This document shows positions 6,010-30,179 of a stretch of 64,000 bases of DNA, in pieces. Each line of letters opens with the position of its first letter. The stretch's first letter is position 1. A program made the translations under genes and the position numbers. The notes under the pieces were generated by a model. The model was not told the DNA's origin, ran no database searches, and worked only from the letters and a program-made list of their open reading frames with translations. This stretch comes from an uncultured Elusimicrobiaceae bacterium. GTDB taxonomy: Bacteria > Elusimicrobiota > Elusimicrobia > Elusimicrobiales > UBA9959. Location of the stretch: positions 318 through 64,317 of the forward strand of contig CAYQJX010000010.1 of assembly GCA_964417965.1 (NCBI GenBank), in the 5' to 3' direction.

Positions 6010-7500
6010 CTAAGCCCAGGGCGGTTCTTTGCCGGCAACTTTAATCCAGCTTATCGTAGAAAATTTTTCAGGGGAATGCCCGGTCTCCAGGCAGAGGTCG
6101 GTAAACCCCATCTCCTTGAGCTGTACCGCGATCTCCTCCCCCCTTATGCCGTCGCCCAGGTTGGAATCGATGTAGATGGGGGTGTCCTTGGCCACCCCTC
6201 CGGCCGAGGCCAGGAAATCGGCCGGGGCTGAGAAAACAAGGAGCTCTACGCCGTGGACGCGGGCGGCGGTCTTCCAGTTTATGCGCACCAGCGCGTCGTC
6301 GTCAATAAGCACCGCGGTCTTCGGAGCGGCCTGCGGTACCGCTTCCGGCAGGTCTATCGTCACTTCGGTCCCGGCGCCTGGCCGGGAAGTTATACTGAGG
6401 CTGCCGCCCCAGCCCTCGGCGCAGGAGCGGGCGTGGTAAAGGCCGAGCCCGGTGCCGCCGGCCTTGCCGTGCGTGGCGCCCTTCTGCCCCAGCCGGGAGA
6501 GTATCTCCGGCGGTATGCCCTTCCCGTCGTCGCGCACCTTCAGCGTCACCCTGCCGCCGCCCCGGGACAGGCCCACCGACACGCGGCCGGCGCCGTCCAG
6601 GGCCTCCACGGCGTTATTTACGAGGTTGGACACCAGGCGGCGCAGCTCCGCCGGGTGAACCCTGGCCCTGGCTTCTGCTTCTCCGGAAAACTCTATCACC
6701 AGGCCGGCCCGGGAAGAGTACTGGGCCCGTTTCTCGGCCAGCACCGGAGAGACCAGGGACTTAAGGTCGTGCGCGGAAGCGGCCTTCGCGGCCGGGGCGG
6801 CGGCGCCGGGCGCCCTGTAATTTTCAAGCAGGTCCCTGGCTATTTCGCCGATGCGCCCCAGCGCGCCGCGGGCCAGCTCACGCCTTTCCTCAGGCAGGGC
6901 GGAGAAATCCGCGAGGGAGGAGTCCAGCGCGGCCAGCGGCGACCTGATGTCGTGCGCCACCTGGGCGGCCAGCGCCGAATAGGATTCTTTTATGCGCAGG
7001 TCCAGGAGCAGGGTATAGTCTTTTATCAGCCTGCGCCGCTCCCTCAGCGCCACCGGCAGCGAGAGCAGCGCCAGGAGCAGCCAGGACAAGACGCCCCAGG
7101 CGGCCGGAGTCCAGCGGGGGTAGTAGAACAACAGTTCCCCGGCCGGGACCTTCTTGTCTTCGTCGAAATAAACGCCTACCCGGGAAGAAGCGTAGAGCAT
7201 CCCGGAGGAGCTCTCGGCGCCGGCCGGCACGCTGAACCCTTTCTCCTGCCCAGCGGGCTTCCAGGCCATGCCGGCAAAGTCGCGCGAAATGGAGGAGGGC
7301 ATGGTGGTTATCACGTGGCGCGCGTCCCCGGCCAGCAGCGAGTCGCGGGAAGCGGCGGCCAGCTGCCTGGCCAGCCGGGCCTTGAAGTAACCCGTAAAAA
7401 GCAGCGACAGCGCCAAGGCCGCGACAAAGATCACCGCCTGGAAAAGCAGGAACTTAACGGCGAGCTGGCGCACGGATCTTTTAATTTCAGGGTCCATCAC
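6010..7500 (-). CDS. Membrane hybrid histidine kinase (HisKA-HATPase-REC), copy 1
   Basis: Two TM helices; H-box VAHDIRSPL, N-box NLVNNAVEA, DDGKG and GTGLGL; C-terminal receiver (IDDD...IDS...ETG...GKEPPWA). Confidence 0.9.
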   Translation of the reverse strand: MMDPEIKRSVRQLAVKFLLFQAVIFVAALALSLLFTGYFKARLARQLAAASRDSLLAGDARHVITTMPSSISRDFAGMAWKPAGQEKGFSVPAGAESSSGMLYASSRVGVYFDEDKKVPAGELLFYYPRWTPAAWGVLSWLLLALLSLPVALRERRRLIKDYTLLLDLRIKESYSALAAQVAHDIRSPLAALDSSLADFSALPEERRELARGALGRIGEIARDLLENYRAPGAAAPAAKAASAHDLKSLVSPVLAEKRAQYSSRAGLVIEFSGEAEARARVHPAELRRLVSNLVNNAVEALDGAGRVSVGLSRGGGRVTLKVRDDGKGIPPEILSRLGQKGATHGKAGGTGLGLYHARSCAEGWGGSLSITSRPGAGTEVTIDLPEAVPQAAPKTAVLIDDDALVRINWKTAARVHGVELLVFSAPADFLASAGGVAKDTPIYIDSNLGDGIRGEEIAVQLKEMGFTDLCLETGHSPEKFSTISWIKVAGKEPPWA

Positions 7501-9011
7501 TTTCTCCTAAGCCGCCATAAAGGATCTCCGGCGATAGCCGCCGGGTAATTGAATTCCCACGGCGCGCGCGCCAGCGAAGCGTAAGGCATAAGGCCGATAG
7601 GCAGGGCGCGCGCGCCGGCCAGGGTCTTGTAATGCAGTTCCCGGAGCATGGCCATCCGCTCTTTCTTGCCCGGGCAGGCCACGTAAGCGGCCAGCCACTT
7701 CTCTTTGGCCTCCGGGCTCAGGTCGAAGAACTCGAGGTCCAGGTAGTACAGCACCAGGCCGATATCGTCCTGGTAGCCGATGTCGCTGCCCAAAAGGAAA
7801 AAATCGGGTTTAGGCGGGTTTTTCCTGTCCTTGAGCGGCGCGGTATCGGCGTAGGCTATCCCCGGCAGCCATTTTTTTATTTCGTCCCCGTCCAGCCAGA
7901 AATAACTGTAGAGACGCCTGGCCTCTACCGTCTTATTTATCACCAGTTCAGGCCCGCCGTCCAGCCGGGCGCGGACATCTTCCAGCTGGGCCCTGGACAG
8001 CGCGCCCTCCATGTTGAACAGCTGGTGCGGGGTCTCGTTCATGCGCCGACGGGCGGGATAAAGCGCGCGCAGCTTCCTGGCTATAAAAAATCTTTCCTCC
8101 CTGGAAAGCCGCTTCAGCCCGCGGTCGGTGAAGACGATGTAGATAATCCTGACCGGCCGCGTAAAGTGCACGGAGTAGCCGGGGTGGGCGGCGGCGAAGT
8201 CGGCCTTATCCTCCGGTTTAAGGACCAGGCCGATCGACAGATAGTCGGCCGTGCCGCCCGAGAGCGTGGCGAGGGACTCCTCGTTGGTGTTGTATTTTTT
8301 AAGACTGACTATCCTGACCTGCCGCGGCATTTTAGAGGAGTAGCGGTAATGCGCGGGGTTGGCCCGGAGCACCATGTCCCCCAGGCCCAGGTCGGCGTCC
8401 ACGTAATACGGCCCCGACGTATTGCGGTAGTCTGTTATCTTCAGGGTCGCCGGGTCTACGGAGCCGCGCGGGATTACGGAGTAGGCCGCGTTGGTCAGCA
8501 GGTGGAAAAGAAAAGGTTTTGGCCCGCCGAGCTTCATCACCAGCCGGCGGCCACCGTCGCGCACCTCCAGGCCCGGGCAGGGGTCCTGCAGGTTTTTCAG
8601 GCTGCTCCGCCCGCACAGCATGCGGCCGAGGAAACTGTAGCTGGTGCCGCCCAGGACGAAGGCTCTTTTCAGGCTCTGTTCGGCGTCGAAGGCGTCTATC
8701 GGCCGGCCGCCAACGGTCTTAAGGCCGGGGCGCATGGTGAAGACGGCTTCTCTCCCCGCCCATTCGAACTGCCCGGCCAGCTCGGAAACCAGCTCGTTGC
8801 CGGAAGAATAGCCCACCAGCGGGCTGAAGAGGTTCTCGGAAAAAAAGTAGTCCCGCGTGTAGTTGAGCGAGACCGGGTCATAGACGGAAGGAGGGTTGGA
8901 CGAATCCATCAGCAGCTTCAGCGCGCCGGGTTCCTGCGCCCTGAAAACGGCGAAAGCCGAATAAAGCGCCGCCCCGATAAGAAGGGGCGGAAATATTATT
9001 CGGAGTTTCAT
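7497..9011 (-). CDS. Family-5 (OppA/DppA-like) solute-binding protein, no ABC permease adjacent
   Basis: N-terminal anchor; LFSPLV...ELVSELA...FTMRPG and SGPYYV segments; stop overlaps the kinase start. Start set at ATG 9011 (alternative TTG 9047). Confidence 0.72.
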   Translation of the reverse strand: MKLRIIFPPLLIGAALYSAFAVFRAQEPGALKLLMDSSNPPSVYDPVSLNYTRDYFFSENLFSPLVGYSSGNELVSELAGQFEWAGREAVFTMRPGLKTVGGRPIDAFDAEQSLKRAFVLGGTSYSFLGRMLCGRSSLKNLQDPCPGLEVRDGGRRLVMKLGGPKPFLFHLLTNAAYSVIPRGSVDPATLKITDYRNTSGPYYVDADLGLGDMVLRANPAHYRYSSKMPRQVRIVSLKKYNTNEESLATLSGGTADYLSIGLVLKPEDKADFAAAHPGYSVHFTRPVRIIYIVFTDRGLKRLSREERFFIARKLRALYPARRRMNETPHQLFNMEGALSRAQLEDVRARLDGGPELVINKTVEARRLYSYFWLDGDEIKKWLPGIAYADTAPLKDRKNPPKPDFFLLGSDIGYQDDIGLVLYYLDLEFFDLSPEAKEKWLAAYVACPGKKERMAMLRELHYKTLAGARALPIGLMPYASLARAPWEFNYPAAIAGDPLWRLRRK

Positions 9012-9056
9012 CCAGATAATTGTGCCTTTTTTGCCGAGCTCCCGCAATTTGGGCGC

Positions 9057-9857
9057 CTACCTGGCTTTCAGCACGGAAATGTCTCCCGTTCCGGATTTGG
9101 CCTGCAGCTGGAAAGGCCCTTCGGCGGCGAACTCGTTCTTTATGGAGCCGGTACCGCTCTTCAGGTTGGCGCCTACAGCGGCCCCTGCCGGGAAGGTGAC
9201 GGAGATATCCGCGGTCCCGGTCTTTACCCTGGCGGTGCCGGAAGCCGGCGCCTTCAGCCAGTCCAGAGCTACGCTGCCAGTGCCGGTACCTATTTCCACG
9301 GGCCCGCAGAGCCCCTTCAAGTTCACCTTCACGCTGCCGCCTTTGACGGTCAACTGTTTGGAGCAAAGTTCGCCAAAGATGTCGCCGGTGCCGCTGTCCA
9401 CCTCCACCTTGCCGGCCAGGGCCGACAGGGCCACGGCGCCGGTGCCGCTCTTAACGGAAACCGTGCCGGTTATCCCGGAGACGCCTATCTTGCCGGTACC
9501 GGACTTAGCCTCAAAATCTATCCCGGACGGCGCCGACACTTTAAAGCCTGCGGCGCAATCCACCCATTTCCCGCCGAAGCCGAAGGGCCCCTTCACCTTA
9601 AGTATTTTGCTGCTCTCGGCCTTAAGCAGCAGCTTGCCATCCAGCACCCCCATGGTCAGCACGCAGGTGTCGGGCAGGTTCCCGAAAACCTCCACTTTAA
9701 TATCCCCGGGCGAGCCTGCCACCGTGATCGGCCCGACCTCCGTGTTAGCGGAGATTCCGTTTATGCCCTTGGCGGGAAAAGTTTTAATCTCCAAATCCGC
9801 GCAATAGCCCTGCCCGGCCAAAGCGAGCAGCGCTGAAAACATTATGGTCTTTTTCAT
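9057..9857 (-). CDS. Secreted DUF4097-like beta-strand repeat protein
   Basis: Signal peptide, repeated SGTG motifs and GGAGG RBS; paralog of 4994-5902. Confidence 0.72.
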   Translation of the reverse strand: MKKTIMFSALLALAGQGYCADLEIKTFPAKGINGISANTEVGPITVAGSPGDIKVEVFGNLPDTCVLTMGVLDGKLLLKAESSKILKVKGPFGFGGKWVDCAAGFKVSAPSGIDFEAKSGTGKIGVSGITGTVSVKSGTGAVALSALAGKVEVDSGTGDIFGELCSKQLTVKGGSVKVNLKGLCGPVEIGTGTGSVALDWLKAPASGTARVKTGTADISVTFPAGAAVGANLKSGTGSIKNEFAAEGPFQLQAKSGTGDISVLKAR

Positions 9858-9955
9858 TTTTCCTCCAGGAACCTGTGCCGCTCTTTAGAATACGTAAGGA
9901 CCTGCGCAACGGTTGCGTCAGTAATACTACCTCTTTCAGGTCAGAATCGGGGCCT

Positions 9956-10816
9956 TTACTGCCCCGCCGTGGACGCCGGAAAGCGGCTAGCCTGCAAATA
10001 CTTCATTTCCGCCGCGTATTTGCCGCAAACAGAATTATCAAAGCCTTCCTTGCCGTAAAACCTGAAGCACTCAGAGATGTCGCTGGTAATGCAGCCCGAC
10101 GCAGGTTTGCCGATAGCCTCAAGGTTCGCGCACGCTTCCGACTCCGCCACGAAGCCGGGCTTCTTCGTCCTTTGGTAGGCGTTATTTATCTCCAGCTCCC
10201 GCTTCGCGTCGTCCGTTCTGCCAAGGTTCCAGGCAAGCTGCGCGAGATTGGAGCTTTTATCTTCCGCTTTTATGTTTATGGCGGCATCAAGATCGCCGAG
10301 GGCGTTAACCTTGTCGCCCTTGGCGAAATATGCCTCGCCGCGATCCTCCAGTATCCAGGTTTTAACATTCGGATTTTTGGTTGTTTGAAGTACTTTGGTG
10401 AACAAAGCTATTGCCGCATCGTAGTCCCCGCGCAGAAAACTGCTCATCCCCATACCCTGCCGTCCCGCGTCAGTATCCCAAAGGCCATTCCTGCGCAGGT
10501 TCGCGTCTATAAGGTCGGCAAGGTGCCGCATCTTGCCTTGCTGCACTTTAGTTCTCTCTTCGAGAGACATTCCTTTGAGTTGAGGTTTTTTCTTGCGAAG
10601 ATCCGCCATTAACCGGCGGATTTCGTCCTCGGCGGAGCCGGCATCTTCCCTGAATTTCTTGTCCGTATCTGGGCATTCAGCGCGGTCATCATTGCTCCGG
10701 CCGGCGCTTTTTGTCTGGACCGGTTTCACTTCCGGAGTCTCTCCGGGGCCGGCAAGTGCGGGCCCGGGAACAAGAACAACGGACAAGAGCGCATAAACGA
10801 ATAAACACCATTTCAT
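9956..10816 (-). CDS. Secreted TPR-repeat protein
   Basis: Signal peptide; GDYDAAIALFTKVL...RGEAYFAKGDKVNALGDLDAAI TPR pattern; ATGA overlap with the upstream gene. Confidence 0.7.
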   Translation of the reverse strand: MKWCLFVYALLSVVLVPGPALAGPGETPEVKPVQTKSAGRSNDDRAECPDTDKKFREDAGSAEDEIRRLMADLRKKKPQLKGMSLEERTKVQQGKMRHLADLIDANLRRNGLWDTDAGRQGMGMSSFLRGDYDAAIALFTKVLQTTKNPNVKTWILEDRGEAYFAKGDKVNALGDLDAAINIKAEDKSSNLAQLAWNLGRTDDAKRELEINNAYQRTKKPGFVAESEACANLEAIGKPASGCITSDISECFRFYGKEGFDNSVCGKYAAEMKYLQASRFPASTAGQ

Positions 10817-11589
10817 AAATTCTCCTCACCATTGCTACAGGATACTCCGCCTTGCATGTTCCCGGCACCTCCGGCCGCAACAGCCTCAAGCACGTCTACA
10901 CTGCGGCTGGCGGGGACCAGCAGCAGGCCCAGCTGATCCTTAAGCGCGACGGAGAGCGCCTCGCTGCTACCGCCGGCCCACGCCAGTTCTACGCGGTATA
11001 GTCCGGCCAGACCTGTCTCGTCCAGGACCGGCATGGAGAACTTCCCCTCGAGCGCCCTCGCCAAGCCGTTCATCTTCAGGCCGGCAGAACGGAGATGGCC
11101 CCGCCCGTCGCTGCACGAGCCGCCGGCGATGCCCGGGGAAAGGCCGGGCGTCGCGGCGCCCTTGTCGCGGCGGAGCAGCAGTACCCGCTTTTCTTTCTTG
11201 AGCTGCCGCACTTCCACGCCATATACAGCCTTTACGGCCTGTCGCAGCAGCGGTTTCATAATCTCTTCCGAAGCCTTCGGCACATGCACCAGGAAATCGT
11301 AATTTTTTCCCGGCAGCTCCGGCGCGATTTCTATGTTCCACCCGCTAATATCGTAAGCATGGGAAAGCATGGAGCACAGGTCCAGGCGGGTATACCTGAG
11401 CGTCGCCGTTTTGCTGTTGGAAACGTACACCAGGCCCGTTTGCCCGCTGTCCGCAGAACGGGTAACCTGCACGGTGAGAACCTCCCGGAGAACATCGCTT
11501 ACGTCCCCCTCCGGGCCCGCCGCGGGCTGCGCATTAAGGAAGTCCTTTACGATCTCGGCTGTTTCGCCGGCGCCGGGTTTTATCTTCAT
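10813..11589 (-). CDS. TIGR03435/DUF3738-like protein
   Basis: VLDETGLAGLYRVELAW and ALKDQLGLLLVP...VDVL C-terminal signature; start at 11589 overlaps the GT9 stop (ATGA). Confidence 0.65.
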   Translation of the reverse strand: MKIKPGAGETAEIVKDFLNAQPAAGPEGDVSDVLREVLTVQVTRSADSGQTGLVYVSNSKTATLRYTRLDLCSMLSHAYDISGWNIEIAPELPGKNYDFLVHVPKASEEIMKPLLRQAVKAVYGVEVRQLKKEKRVLLLRRDKGAATPGLSPGIAGGSCSDGRGHLRSAGLKMNGLARALEGKFSMPVLDETGLAGLYRVELAWAGGSSEALSVALKDQLGLLLVPASRSVDVLEAVAAGGAGNMQGGVSCSNGEENL

Positions 11590-12368
11590 TTTTTTATATC
11601 CGTCCGCCCGGCACCAAGGGTCTTCAAAGCCCTGTCCACTATCTCGCCGGCGGCTATGCTGTCCATGCCGCCGGTTCCCTCCGCGGCAGTTATCGCCTGG
11701 TGCTCCGCATACCCGTGCATGGTGGCGGCCGCGGACCCCCAAAGAGAGATAACGGGGGTGCCGGTCATGTGCGCGGCATGCATGAGGAAGTTGTCGGAGG
11801 TGATCAGCAGGTCCATCCGCTTTAGCAGCAGCACCGCCTCCTGGGGAGTGGTCACTCCGGCCAGCGAATAGGCGTATTTAACTTTTTCCGCCCCGCCCTG
11901 CCCGAGCTGCACCACCAGCGCCCCGCTGTCTCCGAGGGCCTTGGCCACCTCTCCCCACTTGCTCCTGGCCATCATCTTGCCCGGAGAAGCACTGTCCGGG
12001 GCGATGGCCACGTTCTTTGCCTGCCACGGGATCATGGAAGCCACCAGGTCGTCCGAAACCCCGTCCATAGGCAGGTACAGGGTTTCCGGCGCGGGCAGTT
12101 CCAGACCGAAGAGTTTAGCCAGACGCTGGAAAGCGCGGGAAGCGCCGCCGGCTTCGGCCCTGTCAACGGTCAGCACCGGCGCGCCCTTAGGCAGATAATC
12201 TATCTTTTCTATGGCCGGGTGGCCGGCCAGCATTCCGGCCGAGGCAGCGCGCCGGATGACGTTATACTTCTTCCCCAGCCTGTCGTGAGCCAGCTTAAGC
12301 ACCCCCGAGAGCAGCAGCGTGCCGCCCAGGCTTTCCGGAGCGTCTATCCATTGTGTCTCAGTTGTCAT
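11586..12368 (-). CDS. Glycosyltransferase family 9 (heptosyltransferase-like)
   Basis: LITSDNFLMHAAHMTGTPVISLWG and LAGVTTPQEAVLLLKRMDL GT9 C-terminal motifs. Confidence 0.75.
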   Translation of the reverse strand: MTTETQWIDAPESLGGTLLLSGVLKLAHDRLGKKYNVIRRAASAGMLAGHPAIEKIDYLPKGAPVLTVDRAEAGGASRAFQRLAKLFGLELPAPETLYLPMDGVSDDLVASMIPWQAKNVAIAPDSASPGKMMARSKWGEVAKALGDSGALVVQLGQGGAEKVKYAYSLAGVTTPQEAVLLLKRMDLLITSDNFLMHAAHMTGTPVISLWGSAAATMHGYAEHQAITAAEGTGGMDSIAAGEIVDRALKTLGAGRTDIKK

Positions 12369-21855: not shown

Positions 21856-21867
21856 ACCCGGGACCGT

Positions 21868-21981
21868 TTAGAGCACCTCGCCGGATTTGCCGTTGCAGGC
21901 ATTGCCGTGACCGCAGCGCGTGGCGGTTTTGGCGCAATTGGAAACAACGGTCAGAACGGGCGTCGAGTAAGTTTTTTTCAT
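21868..21981 (-). CDS. Putative RiPP precursor 2 (37 aa, 3 Cys)
   Basis: AGGAG RBS; MKKTYSTPVLTVVSNCAKTATRCGHGNACNGKSGEVL with a YxxPxL RRE-binding leader motif; directly upstream of the PqqD and rSAM genes. Confidence 0.82.
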   Translation of the reverse strand: MKKTYSTPVLTVVSNCAKTATRCGHGNACNGKSGEVL

Positions 21982-22040: not shown

Positions 22041-22056
22041 AGCAATTTATATGCCA
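22041..22056 (-). promoter_or_regulatory. Sigma-54 promoter of precursor 2
   Basis: TGGCATATAAATTGCT on the minus strand. Confidence 0.8.
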
Positions 22057-22111
22057 GGGCGCCTTGTTACAGAAGCGGCCAAGTGTTTTGCTTACGGATG
22101 CCGCAAAATAT

Positions 22112-22147
22112 ATTCTCATTTGAAAATATTGTTTTCAAATATGAATA
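22112..22147. promoter_or_regulatory. Palindromic activator site (candidate UAS) plus a weaker second site
   Basis: ATTCTCATTTGAAAAT at 22112-22127, identical to 28617-28632; degenerate GTTTTCAAATATGAAT from 22131. Confidence 0.65.
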
Positions 22148-22221
22148 GAAAAGCAGGGCAATGGCCCGCTTTCCTAGTTTTGGATAGCTCCGGGAGGTCA
22201 GGCCCAGGGCGGTTCTTTGCC
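22141..22221 (-). repeat. Imperfect direct repeat, copy B: kinase 2 3' end plus terminator
   Basis: Aligns with 16510-16594. Confidence 0.8.
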
Positions 22222-23880
22222 GGTTACTTTAAGCCAGGGGAGATGAGAGAATTTTTCGGGGCCGTGGCCGGTGGCCATGGTGAGGTCGGTAAAACCTTTC
22301 GCATGCAGGGCCTGGGCCGTGTCTTCGCCCTTAACGTCGCCGCCCAGCTCGGAGTCTATATAGATTGGCGTATCTTTGGGCAGGGCTTCAGTGCCGGCGA
22401 TAAGTTCTTCCGGGGTTTTATGCGCCTTGAACTCCACGCCTGCGGCTTTGGCGGCCATCCGCCAGTTCATGTGCACCAACAGGTCGTCGTCCAGCAGCAC
22501 CGCGCGCGCAGGCGCGGTTTTAGCCGCGGCCGCCGGCAGTTCCAGCGTAACGGCGGTGCCTTTGCCCGGCTCGGATTCCATCCTGAAGCTGCCGCCCCAG
22601 GCCTCCACCGTTTTGCGGGCGTGGTAAACGCCCAGGCCGGTGCCGCCGGCCTTGCCGTGCGTTTCGCCCTTCTGCCCCAGCCTGGCCAGGATCTCCGGCT
22701 GTATGCCTTTGCCATTGTCCTTTACGGTCAGCAGCACTTTGTGGTCCAGGGCGGACAGGGAGACCGAGACGGTACCCGGCCCGCTGAAGGCTTCTACCGA
22801 GTTATTGATAAGGTTTGAGACCAGCCGCTGGAATTCGGTGGGCTCCACTGAAGCTTTGATCTCCGCAGCGCCGGCGGCGAAATCGATACTGACGCCGGGC
22901 TTATCCTTGTGCTGCAGCCGCTTCTCCGCGACCACCTGCTCCACAAGACCGCCAAGAGCGAGCACCGCGGTTTTGGGTTTAGCCGGCCCGGAGGACGGCG
23001 CGCGGTAACGGGTTAGCAGTTCGTCGGCTATGCCCTGCATGCGCGCCACCGCCCCGTCTATCATGTTGCGCTGCTCCTGCGGGAGCTCCAGCCCTTTAGC
23101 CGCCGCATCCAGCGCCGCCAGCGGCGACCGTATATCGTGCGCCACCTGCGCGGCCAGGTCTGAGGTGGCCTTGGAGATAGCCAGCTCGCTCTCCAGCCGC
23201 GCCGCCTTGCCGAGCGCGTCGCTCATGCGCCCCGTCATCTGCGCGAAAGGCGTGCCTATGGTGCCGGACGGCAGGCCGGCTATATGTTTTTTTATGGACT
23301 CCCGGATGACCTCGCTGTGCCGGGAGTCGGCCACGGCGTTGATCTCGTTGACCGAGCGCTCTATAGCGAGCAGCGTCTTCATTGCACCCAGATTGGAGAT
23401 AATCAGCAGCCCCAAGAAAAAGAAGACCACGGTAATGAACAGCACGTAGTTCTGGCCGAACACCGCGGCGTTTACGTCCAGCAGGTCTATCACGTACTCA
23501 AGCCGGCCCAGCTCAGCGCCGTTGGAGACGAACGGCACGTTATGCGTTATCTGCGCGCGCGGCCGGTCGTAAAGATTGCCTACTATCGCCTCTTTGAAGA
23601 TCCACCTGCTGCCCTCGAACACTACCGGGTGGAAAGCAATGCGTTTTATGTTTTCGTTCTTTATGCGCCACATTATGCGCTGCGTCTCAAAAACGTCGCC
23701 GTCCAGGAAGGCCTTCTCAAAGTAGGCCGCGTTCTGCCGCATGGCGGTCAGCAACTTGTCATCAGCCACCCGCACAGCGGAAAACGCCGAGAAAGCCTGC
23801 CAAAAAGCGACGAAGACCAGCACCGACACAGCATAGTGCCGCCAGTTATAAGCGAATATCCTGAGAAATATTTTTACCAT
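22198..23880 (-). CDS. Membrane hybrid histidine kinase (HisKA-HATPase-REC), copy 2
   Basis: VAHDIRSPL, NLINNSVEA, DNGKG, GTGLG; receiver LDDD...IDS...ATG...GKEPPWA; C-terminal half closely similar to copy 1. Confidence 0.9.
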   Translation of the reverse strand: MVKIFLRIFAYNWRHYAVSVLVFVAFWQAFSAFSAVRVADDKLLTAMRQNAAYFEKAFLDGDVFETQRIMWRIKNENIKRIAFHPVVFEGSRWIFKEAIVGNLYDRPRAQITHNVPFVSNGAELGRLEYVIDLLDVNAAVFGQNYVLFITVVFFFLGLLIISNLGAMKTLLAIERSVNEINAVADSRHSEVIRESIKKHIAGLPSGTIGTPFAQMTGRMSDALGKAARLESELAISKATSDLAAQVAHDIRSPLAALDAAAKGLELPQEQRNMIDGAVARMQGIADELLTRYRAPSSGPAKPKTAVLALGGLVEQVVAEKRLQHKDKPGVSIDFAAGAAEIKASVEPTEFQRLVSNLINNSVEAFSGPGTVSVSLSALDHKVLLTVKDNGKGIQPEILARLGQKGETHGKAGGTGLGVYHARKTVEAWGGSFRMESEPGKGTAVTLELPAAAAKTAPARAVLLDDDLLVHMNWRMAAKAAGVEFKAHKTPEELIAGTEALPKDTPIYIDSELGGDVKGEDTAQALHAKGFTDLTMATGHGPEKFSHLPWLKVTGKEPPWA

Positions 23881-25292
23881 CTAAAATCAGCCACCTCTGG
23901 ATATTCCGAGAACCCCCGACCGACATCTAAATTTTTAATATTTTGTGGATAATAAAGCTTTGTACTGCTTTGATACAACGGCAAGACAACAGCCTCCCGC
24001 TGCACCCCGCTCGCCAACGCCATCGCTGCCTTCACCTTATCGGCCCTACCGTCCAGGGAGAGTAATTCCTTGTACATTTTCCTGAGATCGGCAGGAACAC
24101 TATCTATCACAGCAGCCTCACCCAGATAGTACTCAAAAAACGGCGCATATTCCGGCCTGACCGTATCAGATACAATCACGATCAGCCCATAAGACTTCAA
24201 CTTAGAGCGATTATGCAATTCGCTTACCAGATCCTTTGGCACGTAGTTCTTAATAATTAGTTTGAGCCCAGTACGATCGAAGAGTCGTTTAGAGAACTCT
24301 CTAAGCTGCACAGCATTGTTTTGGTATAGATTCGCTAAAACAATTTGTTTGTTCTTTAAATAGTGCTTTTTCTCATTAGTGCATGCCGTACTACTTCTGC
24401 CCGCCTCCCCCCCTGGAATGCCTAAAGGCAGCAGCCACTTCACATCCAGTAACCCCTTCCTTTCCGGAAGAAAAGCTTCCCTAAATTCTCCCGCGTCGAC
24501 ACAATTATATACAGCATCGCGAAAACGGCTATCTGGATTATTGATGGCTAATCCCACGACACGCAGTTCGATGTTGAAAAATCCGGCAAACTCTTTCTGG
24601 ATCCATTCCGGCTGCTGGAATGTGGACAGTTTGTTGAAGTCACAGATACTCCTATCGTTAAGCCGCACGTCCCCCGGGCCGGAATACTCATGAAAGATTA
24701 CTTTGTTGTATCCATTTCGGACCGGCTTTTTTCTTTCCAGTGTGATTTGCTTACTCTTCACGCTTTTCACGAAAAAGGGGCCCAGCCCGGATTCGTATCC
24801 GGTTTCAACTTTTATGCTGGGCGCATTATCAAATTTTGATAAAAAGTCCAGATACCCATGCTTCGGTTTCTGGAACCTTATAGAAACACAGCCTTCGTTT
24901 TTGTTTATAGTGGCCCCTGGCTCATATTTCTTTGTGACTTCGGAAATATATGAGAGGAAATACTGGAAAGAAAATCCGTTTTTCGCGTCAAAGCGCAGGG
25001 TCGTGTCGGGACAAAACAGGTACTCAGTAGATAAGTTGTTGCGTCCCCAGCGTTTTAATATGCGTGACGCATAGTTCTGGCCGTCATCTTGGCGAAAAAC
25101 CGGTTCGTGCGTCTGCCGGAGGACATAGAAGGTGGAGGTTTCAGATTCGTTCTTAACGGACACTTCCGCAGGCAAGGCTCCGATCAGCACCTTCCAAACA
25201 TCCTTCTCAGAGGACGTGCCGGCAGCGCACTCCCCGGCAAAGATCGGACAAAAGAGTACCCCTAATATCCAGGCCGCGTGATTTGTAGACAT
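23874..25292 (-). CDS. Family-5-like solute-binding protein, copy 2
   Basis: Signal peptide; HEPVFR...ASRIL, GLGPFFV and VLPLYQ segments; overlaps the kinase start; AT-rich. Confidence 0.65.
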   Translation of the reverse strand: MSTNHAAWILGVLFCPIFAGECAAGTSSEKDVWKVLIGALPAEVSVKNESETSTFYVLRQTHEPVFRQDDGQNYASRILKRWGRNNLSTEYLFCPDTTLRFDAKNGFSFQYFLSYISEVTKKYEPGATINKNEGCVSIRFQKPKHGYLDFLSKFDNAPSIKVETGYESGLGPFFVKSVKSKQITLERKKPVRNGYNKVIFHEYSGPGDVRLNDRSICDFNKLSTFQQPEWIQKEFAGFFNIELRVVGLAINNPDSRFRDAVYNCVDAGEFREAFLPERKGLLDVKWLLPLGIPGGEAGRSSTACTNEKKHYLKNKQIVLANLYQNNAVQLREFSKRLFDRTGLKLIIKNYVPKDLVSELHNRSKLKSYGLIVIVSDTVRPEYAPFFEYYLGEAAVIDSVPADLRKMYKELLSLDGRADKVKAAMALASGVQREAVVLPLYQSSTKLYYPQNIKNLDVGRGFSEYPEVADFRW

Positions 25293-26008
25293 TCAGAATG
25301 GAAACCTATTTTTTTCAGGAATTTATTGGATGCGACATTGAACGGGTTGGCGCCTGTAGCCACAACATCCACAACCTGCGACTTTAACCAAGAGACCATC
25401 CGGCTTTTCACCTCGCACCTCTCATCCCCGGTCAACCCCGGGTCTATCCACACCCAGGTTATCCAATCAATATCCGTCCCGTCAAAGTATTTCGCCTTGT
25501 TCAATGGCAGCAATGCAATAGGATGACCGCTTTTACCGAGACAAAACACTTTTGCTTCCGGGATATGCTGTTCCGCGTTCGTTTGAATGATCTTAAGGTA
25601 CTCACTCTCAAGATATTGTTTCCACGGATACCCGAGTTTTTTAGCCCATGGACCACCGAAGTAGTTTTTCTCCGTAGACAAATAGAGTTCCTGCACCTCC
25701 GCTGAGCTCTTAAACGGATAGTCATCGATTCCAGACGGCGTTGCGCATTGGTTGGGGACAGTTAGCCCATCTCGTTGCGTCCGGTAGATCAACCTGGCTA
25801 AATATTTACCAGAAAGGTTCTTGTTCAGCGCGGCAAAGTCTTCGGGGATCTCATGCTTAAAATTCACAAGAAGTGTCGGGGTTTCCAAAGGCCAAGGAAT
25901 ATTATCCACAAGAGCGTTAGTAATCACGGCTGCATCATCCGCTTCGCACACCAGCAGCCTGTTCGTTTTGCTCACAACCTTTATTTTTTCCGGCATATCA
26001 TGACCCAT
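25262..26008 (-). CDS. Putative GNAT-fold protein
   Basis: C-terminal ITWVWIDP...NPFNVASNKFLKKIGF resembles GNAT motifs A/B; start may be 25996. Confidence 0.5.
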   Translation of the reverse strand: MGHDMPEKIKVVSKTNRLLVCEADDAAVITNALVDNIPWPLETPTLLVNFKHEIPEDFAALNKNLSGKYLARLIYRTQRDGLTVPNQCATPSGIDDYPFKSSAEVQELYLSTEKNYFGGPWAKKLGYPWKQYLESEYLKIIQTNAEQHIPEAKVFCLGKSGHPIALLPLNKAKYFDGTDIDWITWVWIDPGLTGDERCEVKSRMVSWLKSQVVDVVATGANPFNVASNKFLKKIGFHSECLQITRPGY

Positions 26009-26876
26009 AAATTGTTTTTTTATCCGTTGTCAGTTTCCTGAAAACTTTTTCACATAACACGCATGGAGCCGAATCCTCCGGGAGGAACGGGGCCATATTT
26101 AAACCAAATTTTTTGATAATCCCCCTGAAAGACAAACTTCGCATCATACGGTAAAACTCACTGTCCAAGTGAGCTTTAAGCGTTGGATGACAAATGTTTT
26201 GGATATTAGTATCAAAAACCAGAGAAGAGCAACAAATACTAAATCCTTTTTCCGGCAAGCAGGTTATTACTTTTTTATTAGGGCACCTGCGAGACAAGAC
26301 ATTGCGGTCAAAACTGGGATGCTGGTAAAAGATCCTGTTACTCCGGGCCCGCCCTACTGGCAACACCTTTTGCATCCCTATCTGAAAGTCTCCGATGTCC
26401 TTCAACTTATTAAGCAGCAGCATATCCATCGGCGACTGAACAGATGCCACCACTCCGAACCCGATATTCAAACTGCGACAGGCATTATGCAGGTTCCGGA
26501 TGTAGGAGAATGGCAAGAACTTCTTATGAAATTTATCATAAGACAACTGCACAGAATCCAATTTTTTAAACGAGGAGAGAAGTGTGACCGCGGAGCTCTT
26601 TGTTTTAGCAAAATGCCCGTTAGTGGTTATTTTGACTTTGAATTTATTCAATTTCCCGAGTTTCGAAAGGAACGCATTTGTACGGTCGAGATATAGGGTG
26701 GGCTCTCCCCCCAGAAAATGCAACGTTTTCATGCCATGCGATTCAACCGCATCCAGCAGAAGGCTCTCTTCTCGCGGATTAAGCGCCGCACTTGCATCAG
26801 GAGAACAACAGTGCGCACATGCAAAGTTGCATTTAAATCCGAACATGATGCCGATCTTGGATATTCTTTCAGTCAT
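25998..26876 (-). CDS. Radical SAM enzyme resembling the YydG/EpeE peptide epimerase
   Basis: CNFACAHCC, TTNGHFA, LSYDKFH, PVGRA, RCP...ICCSSL.F and CVLC follow the YydG/EpeE motif order as recalled from memory. Confidence 0.72.
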   Translation of the reverse strand: MTERISKIGIMFGFKCNFACAHCCSPDASAALNPREESLLLDAVESHGMKTLHFLGGEPTLYLDRTNAFLSKLGKLNKFKVKITTNGHFAKTKSSAVTLLSSFKKLDSVQLSYDKFHKKFLPFSYIRNLHNACRSLNIGFGVVASVQSPMDMLLLNKLKDIGDFQIGMQKVLPVGRARSNRIFYQHPSFDRNVLSRRCPNKKVITCLPEKGFSICCSSLVFDTNIQNICHPTLKAHLDSEFYRMMRSLSFRGIIKKFGLNMAPFLPEDSAPCVLCEKVFRKLTTDKKTIYGS

Positions 26877-26888
26877 TTTCCACAAAAA

Positions 26889-26962: not shown

Positions 26963-27175
26963 TCACCCGACCTTGGTGGGCTTGGGGTCCCCATGGACAA
27001 GAACCTGGGCGCACACATTATTTAACATGCGCTGCTTCGCAGGATTCTGGATTACCTGCATAAGAGAATTCTTTTGTTTAGCCGGGAGGGTTCGGACATA
27101 CTGAACCGCCTGTATTGCAGAAAATAAGCCGACCGACACCAAAAAAGCCGCTATTATTTTGTCTTTCGTTGTCAT
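26963..27175 (-). CDS. Candidate precursor 3 (70 aa, Sec-type signal peptide)
   Basis: AAGGGG RBS; hydrophobic N-terminus ending AIQA; internal PAKQ repeat; first gene before the rSAM. Confidence 0.55.
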   Translation of the reverse strand: MTTKDKIIAAFLVSVGLFSAIQAVQYVRTLPAKQKNSLMQVIQNPAKQRMLNNVCAQVLVHGDPKPTKVG

Positions 27176-27236: not shown

Positions 27237-27273
27237 AAAAAAAGGGAAAGCAAAGTGACTTTTTGCTTTCCCT
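27237..27273 (-). terminator. Intrinsic terminator of the rpoN-like gene
   Basis: AGGGAAAGCAAA / TTTGCTTTCCCT stem with a T tract on the minus strand. Confidence 0.75.
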
Positions 27274-27412
27274 GGATACATCCGATTAAGGTCGGATCGT
27301 GGATACTCTGGGGCCAATCCCCCAAATTACAAGGAAGACTACACGGATAGTGTACATCGCGGGGCTTGCGCGCGTAAGGGCATTAGTGCCCACGCGGCGC
27401 TAGGCCCTTGGG

Positions 27413-28465
27413 CTACCGCGCGCCGGCGGCGGCGAGGCTGAGGTCTTTGCGGTACTGGGCGATGGAGCGGCGGCTCAGGTCCACGCCGTGGCGGGAGCGC
27501 AGCTCCGCGCAGAGCCGGGTGTCGCTGAGCTGCGGCTGTTCGGCGGCTATGGAGTAGAGGCGGTCCAGGTTGACCTTCTTGGAGCTGGGCAGCAGCACCT
27601 CCATGGGCGCCTCCATGCCCCAGGGCATCTGTATCGATTTATTGGAGACCAGGCGGTTGAGCACGCTGGCGTCCACCTCCAGGTTCTTGGCCAGCGTCTT
27701 CTGGGACAAGGGGCGGCGGCGGCTGGGGTCCCCGGTGGCCAGGTAGTCGGCCTGCACGCTGATTAGGATCTCCAGCGCGCGGTAAAGGGTGGTCTTGCGC
27801 TTGTCGGCGAACTCTATCTTTTTCAGCAGCTTCTCCACGCGCTTGCGCTCGGCGGGGTCCATACCGGGCAGCAGGGCGGCCAGCTTGTCGCCGTCCACCT
27901 TGTAGCGGCCTTTCCAGATCTCGCGATGAAAGAAGGCCAGCACGGGCTCGCCGTCGTCCAGCTCTATGCCGGCCACGGCGCTGAACACCTTGGCGGCGGG
28001 GGCCTCGGGCTTCGCCTCGAATTCGGCCTGGATGAAGGCCCGGTTGACGAAATCGCGCAGGCGTTCGGCGTCCTTAATTGTAATGTCGCATTCTTCGGCG
28101 CGCTCTATGTCGCTCATCACGGCGTCGCGCAGGAAGCAGGCCTCGAACTTCTCCTGGCCTATCCCCTGGATCAGCTTCACCAGGTCGCCAGTGCCGTCGG
28201 CCAGCTCGGGCAGGTCGCCGCTGGCCATATTGAGGCCGTAGCCGGCGTATTTGCGCGCGGCGTAGCGGGCGGCGGGAAATTCGCTCAGGTTGATGGCGCC
28301 GGAGGTCTTGAGCAGCTGGAACACGCGGCCGCCCTCCAGGTCCTTTATCATCTCCGCGAATTCTTCCTCGGGCATTTCGGCCATCTGGGCCATTTTAAGC
28401 GCGCCCAGCAGGGCGGCCGAAGTTCTTGCCCCGGTGGAGGCGGTGAGTTTAAAGCTGTGTTTCAT
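27413..28465 (-). CDS. rpoN: Short, divergent sigma-54 factor
   Basis: HTH PLSQKTLAKNLEVDASVLNRLVSNKSIQMPWG and RpoN-box-like SRRSIAQYRKDL; only 350 aa. Confidence 0.78.
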   Translation of the reverse strand: MKHSFKLTASTGARTSAALLGALKMAQMAEMPEEEFAEMIKDLEGGRVFQLLKTSGAINLSEFPAARYAARKYAGYGLNMASGDLPELADGTGDLVKLIQGIGQEKFEACFLRDAVMSDIERAEECDITIKDAERLRDFVNRAFIQAEFEAKPEAPAAKVFSAVAGIELDDGEPVLAFFHREIWKGRYKVDGDKLAALLPGMDPAERKRVEKLLKKIEFADKRKTTLYRALEILISVQADYLATGDPSRRRPLSQKTLAKNLEVDASVLNRLVSNKSIQMPWGMEAPMEVLLPSSKKVNLDRLYSIAAEQPQLSDTRLCAELRSRHGVDLSRRSIAQYRKDLSLAAAGAR

Positions 28466-28509: not shown

Positions 28510-28525
28510 AACAATTTTAATGCCA
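28510..28525 (-). promoter_or_regulatory. Near-consensus sigma-54 promoter in front of the rpoN-like gene
   Basis: TGGCATTAAAATTGTT (-12 is GT rather than GC). Confidence 0.5.
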
Positions 28526-28596
28526 GCGCTGCGGACAGCAAACTCCGATTTGGCCCCCGAGCGCCGGAAGTTTGTATAATATAGATAGGGTTATAT

Positions 28597-28632
28597 ATTC
28601 TCATCCGAGAACTGCCATTCTCATTTGAAAAT
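28597..28632. promoter_or_regulatory. Tandem palindromic activator sites between rpoN and the activator gene
   Basis: ATTCTCATCCGAGAAC (28597) and ATTCTCATTTGAAAAT (28617), starts 20 bp apart as at 15791/15811. Confidence 0.68.
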
Positions 28633-28653: not shown

Positions 28654-30000
28654 ATGGAAAAACTCAATATTTTCGTACTGGAAGACGACAAACTGGCCCA
28701 GAAGGTGATGGGCGCGCACCTGTCCCCCCACACAGTGGACATGGCGGCCGACCTGGACTCGGCCCTTAAAAAGCTGGACGCCGGCCGCTACGACATGGGC
28801 TTCTTCGACCTGATGCTGGGCGTGAACGACGACTATTCCGGCCTTAAGGCCATAGCCGCGGCCGCCAAAAAAGGCATCTACAGCGTGGTGGTCTCCAGCT
28901 CGGACTCGGACGAGATGATAGACAAGGCCTACGCCCTGGGCGCCTCTGATTTCTACGCCAAGGGCAACGAAGAGGCTAACGTGGAGGAGATCCTGCGCAA
29001 GTTCCTGCAGAACCGCAGGGCCGCGGCTTCCGACGATATCTTCACCTCCGCCTTCATCACCGAGGACCCCGAGACCCGCGCGGCGGCCACGGAAGCGCTT
29101 AAGTACGCGCCCACCGACCTCCCCATCCTTATCCTGGGCCCCTCCGGCACCGGCAAGACCTCGCTGGCCAACATCCTGCACGAACATTCCGGCCGCGAGG
29201 GCGCCTTTGTCTCCATCAACTGCTCCGCCTATACCGACGACCTGCTGGAGGCCGAGCTGTTCGGCCACAAGAAGGGCGCTTTCACCGGCGCGTCCGAGGC
29301 CCGCAAGGGCCGCCTGCTGGAAGCCCACCGCGGCACCCTGTTCCTCGACGAGATCGGCACCATGAGCCACAACATGCAGATGAAGCTGCTCAAGGCCATA
29401 GAGGAAAGGACCTTTTATCCCCTCGGCTCCGAGAAGCCCGAGCGGTCCGAGTTCCGCATCATCAGCGCCACGCTGGAGGACCCGCAGGCCCTCATCGCGC
29501 AGGGCAAGATGCGCTTCGACCTGTTCCAGCGCATCCACGGCTACACCATCAACCTCAAACCGCTGGCGCGGCGCCGCGCGGACATCTTCCCGCTGGTGCA
29601 CCATTTCACCAAGGGCGGCCGGCGGCTCTCTTTCAGCCCGGACGCCAAGGCCTTCATGCAGGACTACGCCTGGCCGGGCAATATCCGCGAGCTCAAGAAG
29701 TTCACGGACCTCGTGTCCGGCGGGCAGCAGGGGCGGGTGGACCTGGACACGGCAAAGCGGCATCTCAAGGGGCAGGCCCTGGCCGCGGGCGCGGGCTACG
29801 AGGATTCGCTCTACGCGCTGGCGCTGGCCGAAGGCCTGGACGCCGCGCTGGAGAAGGTGACCGGCGAGCTGGTAGGGCGCAGCCTCCGCGAGAACGGCGG
29901 CGTGCGCACCAAGACGCTGACCGACCTGAAGATCTCTACAAGGCTTTTATACGCCACCCTCAAAAAACTGGGGCTGGATACCGAAGGGGGAAAGAAATGA
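28654..30000 (+). CDS. NtrC-family sigma-54 enhancer-binding response regulator
   Basis: REC domain (EDD, FFDL, YAK); GPSGTGKT; [13 protein letters not shown]; LFLDEI; WPGNIREL; C-terminal HTH. Confidence 0.92.
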
Positions 30001-30179
30001 CCGGGATAGATAATTCGAAACTGCTGCACGACCTGCGCTCCAAGTGCTCCAGCCTCAAGAGCGCCGCCGAACTCTACAAGGACTGTTCGCCCGCGGAAAA
30101 GAAGGAAATGCTGGCGCTGATGAACTCGGCCGCCGCCGAGATAACCAGACTGCTGGGCCAGCTTGAGAAGTCCGCCTAG
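29997..30179 (+). CDS. Stand-alone 60-aa HisKA/DHp-like protein
   Basis: LLHDLRSKCSSLKSAAEL H-box-like helix plus a second helix; ATGA overlap with the activator gene. Confidence 0.6.
   Translation: MTGIDNSKLLHDLRSKCSSLKSAAELYKDCSPAEKKEMLALMNSAAAEITRLLGQLEKSA

Follow-up and report, generated by a model that had tools for sequence, protein, structure and literature searches.

A candidate peptide-sensing sigma-54 phosphorelay regulon in uncultured groundwater Elusimicrobia

Described relay and peptide-signalling systems and the Elusimicrobia locus

Quorum sensing in Vibrio harveyi and Vibrio cholerae runs through a phosphorelay in which LuxP-LuxQ, LuxN and CqsS act on LuxU, and LuxU on LuxO (PMC4878744). 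The present analysis concerns a locus of similar logic in a stretch of 64,000 nucleotides (contig CAYQJX010000010.1, positions 318 to 64,317; ENA metagenome contig ERZ27284381, k139_737406; hereafter the window, whose own numbering is used throughout) from an uncultured groundwater member of the Elusimicrobia, an Elusimicrobiales genome. The genes in question lie within 6010-30179 and include those for a compact sigma-54 family protein (sig54L), a bacterial enhancer-binding protein (bEBP), a 60-aa protein resembling the dimerization and histidine phosphotransfer (DHp) domain of kinases (miniDHp), two sensor kinases, each paired with a solute-binding protein (SBP), and three clusters of peptide and radical SAM (rSAM) genes. 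We put at roughly 0.6 the probability that a sigma-54 phosphorelay regulon specific to this lineage, one that senses peptides, is represented in the window by its core, a complete sensor module, an additional sensor pair and two clusters of cargo genes. No published description of this Elusimicrobia circuit was found in the literature.

An earlier note on this DNA had held that no described system has such an architecture. The claim proved too strong, since the Vibrio pathway also combines an SBP, a hybrid kinase, a phosphotransfer protein and a sigma-54 bEBP, and is close in logic. As in Vibrio, parallel hybrid kinases would here feed one small His-phosphotransfer protein and, through it, one NtrC-type sigma-54 bEBP, and a binding protein would act as periplasmic co-receptor (for one kinase in Vibrio). 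The two differ in their parts. In place of AI-2, an acyl-homoserine lactone (AHL) or CAI-1, the Elusimicrobia signal seems to be a ribosomally made peptide that is exported by Sec, often modified by rSAM and encoded in one operon with its receptor; the SBPs belong to family 5, LuxP to the ribose-binding type; and transfer would fall to a DHp hairpin of 60 aa, where Vibrio has a monomeric Hpt four-helix bundle. Unlike in Vibrio, moreover, the receiver of the kinases lacks helix alpha5 and is missed by Pfam, a compact and apparently self-regulated sigma-54 is encoded beside the bEBP, and the sensors appear to be gated by a riboswitch. Finally, the predicted outputs are cargo operons that would be activated directly, in place of the Qrr small RNAs.

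Transfer by DHp-type phosphotransferases is known from the CckA-ChpT-CtrA and Spo0F-Spo0B-Spo0A phosphorelays (PMC9981736, PMC3433190). The locus resembles these in that the transfer step would be carried out by a DHp-like hairpin homologous to the kinase DHp, and in that the intermediate receiver has a FATGUY-like strand beta4 and a reduced helix alpha4. ChpT and Spo0B keep a degenerate domain resembling the catalytic ATP-binding (CA) domain, whereas miniDHp is a bare hairpin; in addition, the receiver described here lacks alpha5 and the output is a sigma-54 bEBP.

A peptide gene beside its receptor kinase, co-diversification of the two and positive feedback are features that the proposed circuit would share with NisK/NisR of nisin, Agr, ComCDE/Blp and Rgg-SHP-streptide of the Firmicutes, autoinduced systems in which a peptide is likewise tied to the production of further secreted peptides. 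The YydF/YydG epipeptide triggers LiaRS, and one class of operon described below has a YydG-like rSAM, but below the YydG family cut-off. In contrast to the Firmicutes systems, the host is a diderm, export would follow the Sec or Tat pathway and not a dedicated ABC-peptidase, reception would be by a periplasmic SBP, and a four-step relay would lead to a sigma-54 activator. The PEP-CTERM pair PrsK/PrsR (TIGR02916/TIGR02915), which ranked third among the NCBIfam matches for the kinases and for the bEBP alike, far under the cut-offs, also has a lineage-specific bEBP regulon with one conserved upstream element before many small secreted-protein genes; it is a plain two-component pair, however, and PEP-CTERM or exosortase genes are lacking here. 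If the proposed reading is true, the locus represents the first candidate cell-cell or kin-sensing system of uncultured free-living Elusimicrobia, and a diderm case of receptor-linked ribosomal peptide pheromones captured by a periplasmic binding protein.

Core regulators and sensor kinases

The window was compared with approximately 160 related loci, every one from Elusimicrobia, its nearest relatives being Elusimicrobia metagenome-assembled genomes (MAGs) such as GWB2_63_22 (about 90-97% protein identity). Gene content was read from the list of open reading frames (ORFs) and from Pfam and NCBIfam scans of the window proteins. Linkage was assessed from the sigma side in 80 independent metagenome loci, counts being taken over the 37 that extend at least 2 kb to either side, and from the kinase side in 74 genome loci, at distances of up to 10 kb from the kinase tail. 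The parts list of the earlier note was borne out in the window: three peptide-plus-rSAM clusters on the minus strand (ORFs, Pfam and NCBIfam), clusters 1 and 3 running into the SBP-kinase pairs SBP1-HK1 and SBP2-HK2, respectively, a sigma-54, a bEBP and a tiny His-box protein at the neighbouring locus (ORFs and Pfam), and kinases ending in GKEPPWA, as both HK1 and HK2 do (with 54% identity between them from the H box onwards).

Of the computational arguments for cooperation between kinase, miniDHp, bEBP and sig54L, the strongest is that they have stayed neighbours through rearrangement. Kinases with a C-terminal truncated receiver, designated X, that ends in GKEPPWA are called X-kinases here. 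On the sigma side, a bEBP gene was found beside sig54L in 30/37 loci, miniDHp in 29/37 and an X domain in 18/37; on the kinase side, sig54L, bEBP and miniDHp were no further than 10 kb from an X-kinase in 13-20 of the 74 genome loci. At least four gene orders were seen, namely the divergent one of the window, HK-X>miniDHp>sig54L, bEBP>miniDHp>sig54L>HK-X, and HK-X>sig54L facing <miniDHp<bEBP.

The sig54L gene (27413..28465, minus strand) is divergent to the bEBP gene and encodes a protein of 350 aa, in which Pfam recognised the DNA-binding domain (Sigma54_DBD, PF04552, E 1.7e-15), with conserved RpoN-box SRRSIAQYR (SRRS[IV]AQYR in the family) and helix-turn-helix (HTH). The family profile matched the C-terminal domains of sigma-54 chains in the PDB (positions 191-346), and the top 30 Foldseek hits of its AlphaFold2 (AF2) model (pLDDT 73.6) were exclusively sigma-54 chains, over alignments of 246-429 columns, mostly about 280, with low global TM-scores. 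The core-binding (CBD) and activator-interacting (AID) domains were not matched by Pfam, the N-terminal half being beyond Pfam and NCBIfam recognition; by eye, its helices look region-I-like. The 251 homologues found were mostly about 350 aa long, and those with a name came exclusively from Elusimicrobia. For Elusimicrobium minutum, sigma-54 has been reported as absent (PMC3162934). Two paralogues of sig54L were seen in some genomes, of which one adjoins bEBP and miniDHp and the other neither (loci L108 and L131 on contig Ga0247842_10001186; P0105 and P0122 on one 14.7-kb contig).

The bEBP (28654..30000, plus strand) is composed of a receiver (Response_reg, PF00072, E 9e-9), an AAA+ sigma-54 activator domain (Sigma54_activat, PF00158, E 1e-55) with GAFTGA at residue 208, and a C-terminal HTH-like tail. 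The receiver is complete, D11, D12 and the phospho-acceptor D52 being read from the sequence, and the protein thus has the composition of an NtrC-type enhancer-binding response regulator; it has no kinase of its own. Its stop codon is overlapped by 4 nt by the miniDHp gene (29997..30179, plus strand), which is translationally coupled to it. MiniDHp is proposed as a His phosphotransferase acting through His11, which was invariant in 17 orthologues with identities down to 41%. In a profile comparison with the DHp of X-kinases (hhalign; probability 91.7%, E 7.7e-7) this residue was aligned on the phospho-His, and the protein reads as a hairpin of the DHp type (Spo0B/ChpT-like), its His lying in the first helix. 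Having no CA domain, miniDHp is not expected to autophosphorylate. The Pfam scan detected no Hpt domain (PF01627) in miniDHp or any other window protein scanned. In distant lineages, miniDHp sits immediately 3' of the kinase tail. To our knowledge, it would be the smallest His-relay protein known; together with a receiver devoid of alpha5, such a minimal DHp-only phosphotransferase would, if real, inform the minimum needs of a phosphorelay step.

HK2 (22198..23880, minus strand) has two transmembrane helices, a periplasmic domain of about 110 aa, a DHp (H248) and a CA domain, the HisKA H box and HATPase_c of a histidine kinase both being matched in Pfam, and the X tail (residues 460-560, with D509). 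HK1 (6010-7500, minus strand) is a second X-kinase, linked to SBP1 by a 4-nt overlap, and several paralogous membrane kinases occur per genome. Across 71 paralogues, the DHp was nearly invariant (QVAHDIRSPLAAL..), with the H box QVAHD[IV]RSPL in 71/71; DHp and CA together form a cassette that these kinases share almost unchanged.

The earlier note had called these proteins hybrid kinases. Pfam does not recognise the tail as a receiver, Response_reg (PF00072) remaining unmatched even at E<=10; predicted structure and fold search do. The AF2 model of the tail (pLDDT 95) shows a (beta-alpha)4-beta fold with a short alpha4 and without alpha5, and its top 50 Foldseek hits in the PDB were receiver domains only (TMq 0.62-0.76). 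Within its approximately 100 aa, D5, D7, D50, T78 and K96 are invariant, D6 is found in at least 90% of sequences, and the motifs YIDS, TG and KEPP are invariant, all phospho-acceptor residues being retained. In its beta4 motif, [LM]ATGH, and its short alpha4, the tail recalls Rec domains of the FATGUY type, a motif of receivers that act as phosphorelay intermediates, such as those of CckA, MrrA and SdrG (PMC9981736). An exhaustive search with an X-domain profile returned 284 representative clusters at E<=1e-30, in proteins of 440-1116 aa and invariably at the extreme C-terminus, and in a scan that covered one genome for each GTDB species, the tail turned up in Elusimicrobia-type MAGs only (152 confirmed stretches, several per genome). 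Short ORFs retrieved by a tail-only search were rejected as stand-alone receiver proteins, being mostly gene fragments, frameshifts or 3' remnants. They were observed beside promoter cassettes and cargo genes (L003 9992-10276; L004 8998-9621; L005 7312-7785 and 9308-9808), and some keep the last approximately 35 residues of the ATPase domain. These ORFs look like 3' remnants of cassette duplication or recombination, comparable to that at 16571-16610 of the window.

The same data bear on the route of the phosphate. The kinases might phosphorylate the bEBP receiver directly, the tail serving as phosphate sink or autoinhibitor and miniDHp as a DHp mimic that inhibits kinases or dephosphorylates receivers. 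A DHp nearly invariant in 71 paralogues is what one common partner would impose, and miniDHp, being homologous to that domain, could heterodimerise or compete with it. We nevertheless consider this route quite unlikely: a His conserved down to 41% identity would be superfluous in a pure mimic, translation of miniDHp is coupled to that of the bEBP, no catalytic residue has been lost from the tail, which also has FATGUY-like intermediate features, and hybrid kinases as a rule require a His-phosphotransfer step. In the favoured relay, phosphate would pass from H248 of HK2 to its receiver D509, then to His11 of miniDHp and Asp52 of the bEBP.

Promoter cassettes and cargo clusters

At the end of the proposed relay, the bEBP would bind palindromic upstream activating sequences (UAS) and activate sig54L-RNA polymerase on -24/-12 promoters. 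Three such promoters, TGGCATTATAATTGC (15724-15738), TGGCATATAAATTGC (22042-22056) and TGGCATTAAAATTGT (28511-28525), precede pre1 and pre2, the precursor genes of clusters 1 and 2, and sig54L. The palindrome TTTTCAAATGAGAAT has seven matches in the window at <=3 mismatches, as compared with 0.79 expected, all of them within the three promoter upstream regions and paired about 20 bp apart, so that the promoter and palindrome recorded in the earlier note before both precursors and the sigma gene were recovered. By motif match, the sig54L cassette (28511..28631, minus strand) carries UAS copies at 28597-28611 and 28617-28631, the output cassette that follows HK2 and would drive cluster 2 (22042..22146, minus strand) at 22112-22126 and 22132-22146, and that of cluster 1 (15724..15825, minus strand) at 15791-15805 and 15811-15825. 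A degenerate cassette, with palindrome ATTTCCATATGGAAAT (16502-16517) and a fourth promoter copy TGGCATGGAAAATGC (16466-16480), lies before the gene of a secreted 175-aa protein (15873-16400; whole unit 15873..16517, minus strand).

The cassette was conserved in relatives. A census of about 2.4 Mb of related sequence yielded 104 unique copies of the conserved site TGGCATAAAAATTGC with upstream palindromes, which are predicted to be sigma-54 promoters; the family consensus consists of two ATTTTCAwwTGAAAAT 19-21 bp apart, usually, and 60-120 nt upstream of TGGCATAAAAATTGC. Among the 94 cassettes with at least 1.5 kb downstream, 28 were located before sig54L, 25 before rSAM clusters, 22 before secreted proteins of 120-300 aa, and two (four before de-duplication) directly before a riboswitch-led sensor operon. 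Predicted autoregulation of sig54L is thus conserved, 28/94 cassettes preceding the sigma gene. The precursors of the rSAM-linked cassettes were very diverse and include peptides of 30-38 aa accompanied by one rSAM or two, as well as Cys-rich 80-aa peptides. Cassettes were also found within 400 nt after the stop codon in 25/81 X-domain ORFs (median 155 nt); with 0.0105 cassettes expected per 400-nt window, or about 0.85 over the 81 ORFs, this is an approximately 30-fold enrichment. If true, this would be a clean natural model of a private regulon, in which a compact sigma-54 activates its own gene and is served by a single dedicated activator and about 100 near-identical cassettes. In addition, the cassette flags dozens of otherwise unannotated rSAM/RiPP clusters (RiPP, a peptide made by the ribosome and modified after translation), which might then be switched on with a phosphomimetic bEBP and sig54L.

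Some cassettes were followed by tandem arrays of near-identical small ORFs, four of 36 aa in L012 (from ~9378 on; MNNILELQKIEAANEAAANKDWSTLSISDCQNGGGN) and three of 29-32 aa in L030 (from ~786 on). Secreted families of 160-300 aa with no recognised domain, for instance MKKSNILIA...(V/I)DFDG... and MKKELKAV...LYSG..., were frequent in the regulon and supplied the first ORF after the cassette in L004, L011, L019, L022, L029, L037, L039, L044, L050, L068 and L070, and at 15873-16400 of the window.

Cluster 1 (9057..15668, minus strand) contains pre1 (15369-15668; 99 aa, with a Tat-like SRREALK signal and a Tyr-rich end), an rSAM (14282-15283; Pfam and NCBIfam), an unknown 311-aa protein (13455-14390), an rSAM-SPASM resembling DynA and DarE (12358-13467; NCBIfam, below the family cut-offs with 140 vs 450 bits for DynA and 112 vs 650 for DarE), and GT9, DUF3738, TPR and DUF4097 genes, after which SBP1-HK1 follows. 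Cluster 2 (16662..21981, minus strand) is made up of pre2 (21868-21981; 37 aa, Cys-rich with 3 Cys), a PqqD/RRE gene, an rSAM-SPASM (20288-21370; Pfam) and two ABC exporter half-transporters. At its 3' end, a kinase remnant (16571-16600, ending AGKEPPWA before the stop) and a terminator hairpin homologous to the 3' flank of HK2 were found (16521..16610, minus strand).

The earlier note had read each of the three clusters literally as the source of an interchangeable autoinducer for the SBP and kinase at its 3' end, cluster 2 having lost its kinase. This has in its favour the physical adjacency in the window, the remnant behind cluster 2 and the conservation of cluster 3 with SBP2-HK2. Cluster 1, however, has orthologues in L005, L014 and L135 only, none of them followed by SBP1-HK1, and SBP1-HK1 in L038, L049, L054, L062, L067, L077, L078 and L098 has a peptide gene of its own and no rSAM cluster. 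No counterpart of cluster 2 was found among the other loci searched, so that this cluster appears to be variable cargo. As to the remnant, which does exist as noted, it amounts to the last ~8-10 codons of a kinase, and a lost cluster 2 kinase was rejected at ~10 codons, such cassettes following 25/81 kinase genes. Kinase 3' ends with cassettes precede every kind of cargo, secreted proteins included, and copying of a promoter cassette to which it belonged therefore accounts better for the remnant, the copied unit probably being kinase end, terminator and cassette. The literal scheme as a whole is accordingly given very little credence: its signal-receptor pairing is supported for cluster 3 and not for clusters 1 and 2, and these two are best read, from their distribution, as regulon outputs (cargo).

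Sensor operons, riboswitch and proposed circuit

Approximately 50 of the 71 full-length X-kinases (~70%) have their start overlapped by 4-7 nt by a family-5 SBP gene of ~450-530 aa, to which they are translationally coupled. SBP2 (23874..25292, minus strand; 7-nt overlap with the HK2 start), a divergent family-5 binding protein with a signal peptide, is the proposed peptide receptor. It has no Pfam match, and its assignment, already made in the earlier note, comes from the family profile, which matched NikA, OppA and AapF in the PDB at E 7e-8 to 1e-5 over nearly the full length; for SBP1 (7497-9047, minus strand), also assigned there to family 5, the Pfam match is sub-threshold (20.7 bits, cut-off 32.4). 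A third class, SBP3, was matched by the Pfam family-5 model at E 1e-20 to 1e-30. SBP1 and SBP2 were rejected as duplicates of each other, since BLAST showed no similarity between them, and represent separate classes.

Each SBP class is associated with its own type of operon. In class 2 (~27-31 loci; cluster 3 of the window), the order is pre3, a YydG-like rSAM, in part of the loci an unknown gene, SBP2 and the kinase. The pre3 gene (26963..27175, minus strand) encodes an exported pro-peptide of 70 aa, the proposed signal, for which an alignment of 26 orthologues showed a Sec-like signal, a pro-region and a hypervariable C-terminal core. With the adjacent maturase gene rSAM3 (25998..26885, minus strand), it has the short precursor, conserved leader and variable core of a RiPP. 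The rSAM3 protein (Pfam Radical_SAM) is nearest to the peptide epimerase YydG (TIGR04078, E 1.6e-18), at 67 bits against a cut-off of 300 and hence below YydG family membership, and adjoins pre3 in 27 loci. The unknown gene, unk248 (25262..26008, minus strand), was detected by tblastn in 13 loci and is present in roughly half of the class-2 operons; it encodes a predicted cytoplasmic protein that was matched in neither the Pfam nor the NCBIfam scan. By eye, the end motif of unk248, FNVASNKFLKKIGF, is reminiscent of the C-terminal motif of GNAT acetyltransferases, a likeness without database support.

Class-3 operons consist of a SPASM-type rSAM, a 60-aa Sec-signal peptide, SBP3 and a kinase, and take the position after the sigma gene in L006, the closest relative of the window. 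Class-1 operons comprise a 58-80 aa Sec-signal peptide, SBP1 and a kinase, and no rSAM; the SBP1-HK1 pair (6010..9047 in the window) was conserved in at least 8 loci and is elsewhere preceded by a riboswitch and its own peptide of this size. In all three classes, then, the SBP-kinase pairs of relatives come with genes for small exported peptides, and peptide, family-5 SBP and kinase form the shared minimum. It follows from class 1 that rSAM chemistry is optional, a correction to the clusters as first described.

Median pairwise identities rose from 13% in the pre3 core to 38% in SBP2, 73% in HK2 and 89% in the HK2 periplasmic domain (residues 36-143, 27 orthologues; catalytic core 72%), residues 1-40 of pre3 being at 54%. 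The gradient from pre3 core through SBP2 to kinase is compatible with co-diversifying signal and receptor pairs on a constant transducer, and would also fit a tethered modulator. Accordingly, a different role of the peptide has to be weighed, in which the SBP-kinases sense environmental oligopeptides, nickel or metallophores, or cell-wall peptides, and the operon peptides are tethered or periplasmic modulators (MgrB/SafA-like) or tethered ligands. Family-5 SBPs do bind peptides, nickel and opines, as the hits to NikA, OppA and AapF recall, and the conserved hydrophobic segment of pre3 with its juxtamembrane QYVxxLSxxEK (54%) and the kinase periplasmic domain (89%) are consistent with contact close to the membrane. 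On the other hand, the -3/-1 pattern (V/T/I)-Q-A before QY fits cleavage by signal peptidase I, a hypervariable core and a diverging SBP beside a conserved kinase form the pattern of a co-diversifying pair, and three unrelated peptide families hold the same operon position. An exogenous ligand is thus judged unlikely, and the exported peptide is retained as the candidate signal.

A regulatory layer that the control scheme of the earlier note had missed precedes the sensor operon. Between sig54L and pre3, an aptamer of the purine-family riboswitch class 2'-dG-II (defined by Weinberg et al. 2017) was identified (27267..27337, minus strand; Rfam RF03165, 85 bits, E 1e-20, full model). It passed the gathering score of 60, ranked best within the purine clan and includes the conserved junction nucleotides, and all eight other loci tested with Rfam scored 81-86 bits. 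A strong intrinsic terminator follows (GGGAAAGCAAA..TTTGCTTTCCC and T7; 27237..27272, minus strand); as read from the sequence, its 5' arm shares nucleotides with helix P1 of the aptamer, on the 3' strand of the latter. In the ligand-free minimum free energy (MFE) fold, P2, P3 and the terminator were formed and P1 was not. Since the P1 strand is shared with a terminator that forms in the ligand-free fold, ligand is expected to give read-through, and the element is predicted to be an ON switch.

The aptamer and terminator element was found in 49 copies in related loci (nhmmer), 45/49 of which lead a same-strand operon ending in an X-kinase, with a peptide or rSAM gene starting ~0-370 nt further on. 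It lies upstream of 25/29 SBP2, 6/8 SBP3 and 4/11 SBP1 operons, and in about 28 loci pre3 starts ~60 nt past the terminator. Cluster 3 lacks a separate -24/-12 promoter and sits behind the sigma gene, the riboswitch and the terminator; in several loci, a sigma-54 cassette is placed 112-167 nt upstream of the riboswitch. Binding of 2'-dG by the 2'-dG-II aptamer and its structure are established (PMC6847200), and the class was previously known from 12 metagenomic reads only, with the lineage unassignable (PMC5473149). The window aptamer matches the same family model over its full length, here with an ON-type terminator platform and at ~49 sites, and by these matches the class is now assigned to Elusimicrobia, with putative peptide-SBP-kinase operons behind it. 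A reported association with a gene for a 'signal receiver domain' (PMC8872408) probably reflects the X-kinases of Elusimicrobia. If the assignment is true, the class gains a host lineage and a coherent regulon, and the gating of sensor kinases by a riboswitch would be unusual. A match to the nhaA-I (Na+) riboswitch was seen in L006 (16993-17041, plus strand; 39.1 against a gathering score of 37).

Taken together, the following circuit is proposed. The exported peptide, modified by rSAM enzymes in classes 2 and 3, would be captured in the periplasm by the co-evolving SBP, which would then dock on the conserved periplasmic domain of the kinase and set the relay in motion. Activation of the cassettes would raise sig54L and the sensor operon, giving positive feedback, and turn on the cargo, which in the window would comprise SBP1-HK1, the secreted protein of 175 aa and clusters 1 and 2. 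For transcription to continue from sig54L into the pre3 operon, the riboswitch ligand would be needed as well, 2'-deoxyguanosine or a close relative; as both the ligand and the phosphorelay are needed, sensor expression would amount to an AND gate with an intracellular deoxynucleoside cue. We infer which ligand binds, in what order and direction phosphate is transferred, with what sign regulation acts and that the riboswitch is turned ON by its ligand, and likewise the function, a quorum- or kin-sensing-like peptide circuit over swappable secreted-peptide arsenals.

A broader version is tentative, and we would sooner doubt it than not: a private peptide 'language' of free-living Elusimicrobia, with pheromone and SBP pairs, a bare DHp relay, portable cassettes and listening licensed by 2'-dG from DNA breakdown, extracellular DNA (eDNA) or phage. 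Also less probable than not is a competition or danger response in place of cell-density sensing, which would overlap with the proposed circuit and differ from it in biological meaning only, 2'-dG from the degraded DNA of lysed neighbours, eDNA or phage licensing the sensors and the cargo serving as weapons or defences. The riboswitch does head sensor operons, and PMC8872408, citing Weinberg 2017, places 2'-dG-II elsewhere upstream of genes for endonuclease I, ComEC and phospholipase D. Likewise, the cargo is variable and often exported (ABC exporters, Tat/Sec signals) and resembles clusters of the darobactin/dynobactin and sacti/ranthipeptide types. Against a danger response, immunity genes were not identified, and the antimicrobial role of the cargo is an assumption.

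Several findings weigh against the peptide-sensing phosphorelay itself. The riboswitch is present in just 4/11 class-1 operons, and SBP1-HK1 of the window has neither a riboswitch nor a peptide gene of its own. The HK2 periplasmic domain is the most conserved part of the operon, which the model does not account for, and the N-terminal hydrophobic segment of the peptide is more conserved than a usual cleaved signal peptide and could be a membrane anchor. For miniDHp, the Pfam HisKA match is sub-threshold and the profile gave no significant match to a solved structure among PDB sequences; that the DHp hardly varies among the kinase paralogues would also be compatible with their phosphorylating a single shared regulator directly. 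In distant homologues of sig54L (54-58% identity), the neighbourhood differs and no bEBP is adjacent. Ligand binding turns the LuxPQ kinase into a phosphatase, and a like sign here would invert the feedback logic. Lastly, the organisms are known solely as uncultured MAGs, and the wiring is drawn from sequence and models.

Directly 3' of miniDHp, a pair of M16 peptidases with signal peptides is encoded (30163..33172, plus strand; Pfam), M16a with HLMEH and M16b without HxxEH. Synteny of the pair was observed in 13/62 miniDHp loci and was kept only in the nearer clade; it is a candidate periplasmic pro-peptide protease, which may process or degrade the exported peptides, and its membership in the system is tentative.

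DUF4097 proteins of the LiaG-like 'toastrack' type are encoded twice in the window (4994-5902 and 9057-9857, copies 53% identical) and recur after the sigma gene or kinases elsewhere, directly after sig54L in L084, L085, L091-L095 and L100. In B. subtilis, the epipeptide made by YydG induces the Lia system, which includes LiaG, and the recurrence is a curious parallel to this link. Further downstream (34554-40656, plus strand), two large E/A/R/L/K-rich proteins of 1054 and 971 aa without a Pfam hit, probably coiled-coil and apparently unrelated to the circuit, are the source of a strong A-over-T skew there.

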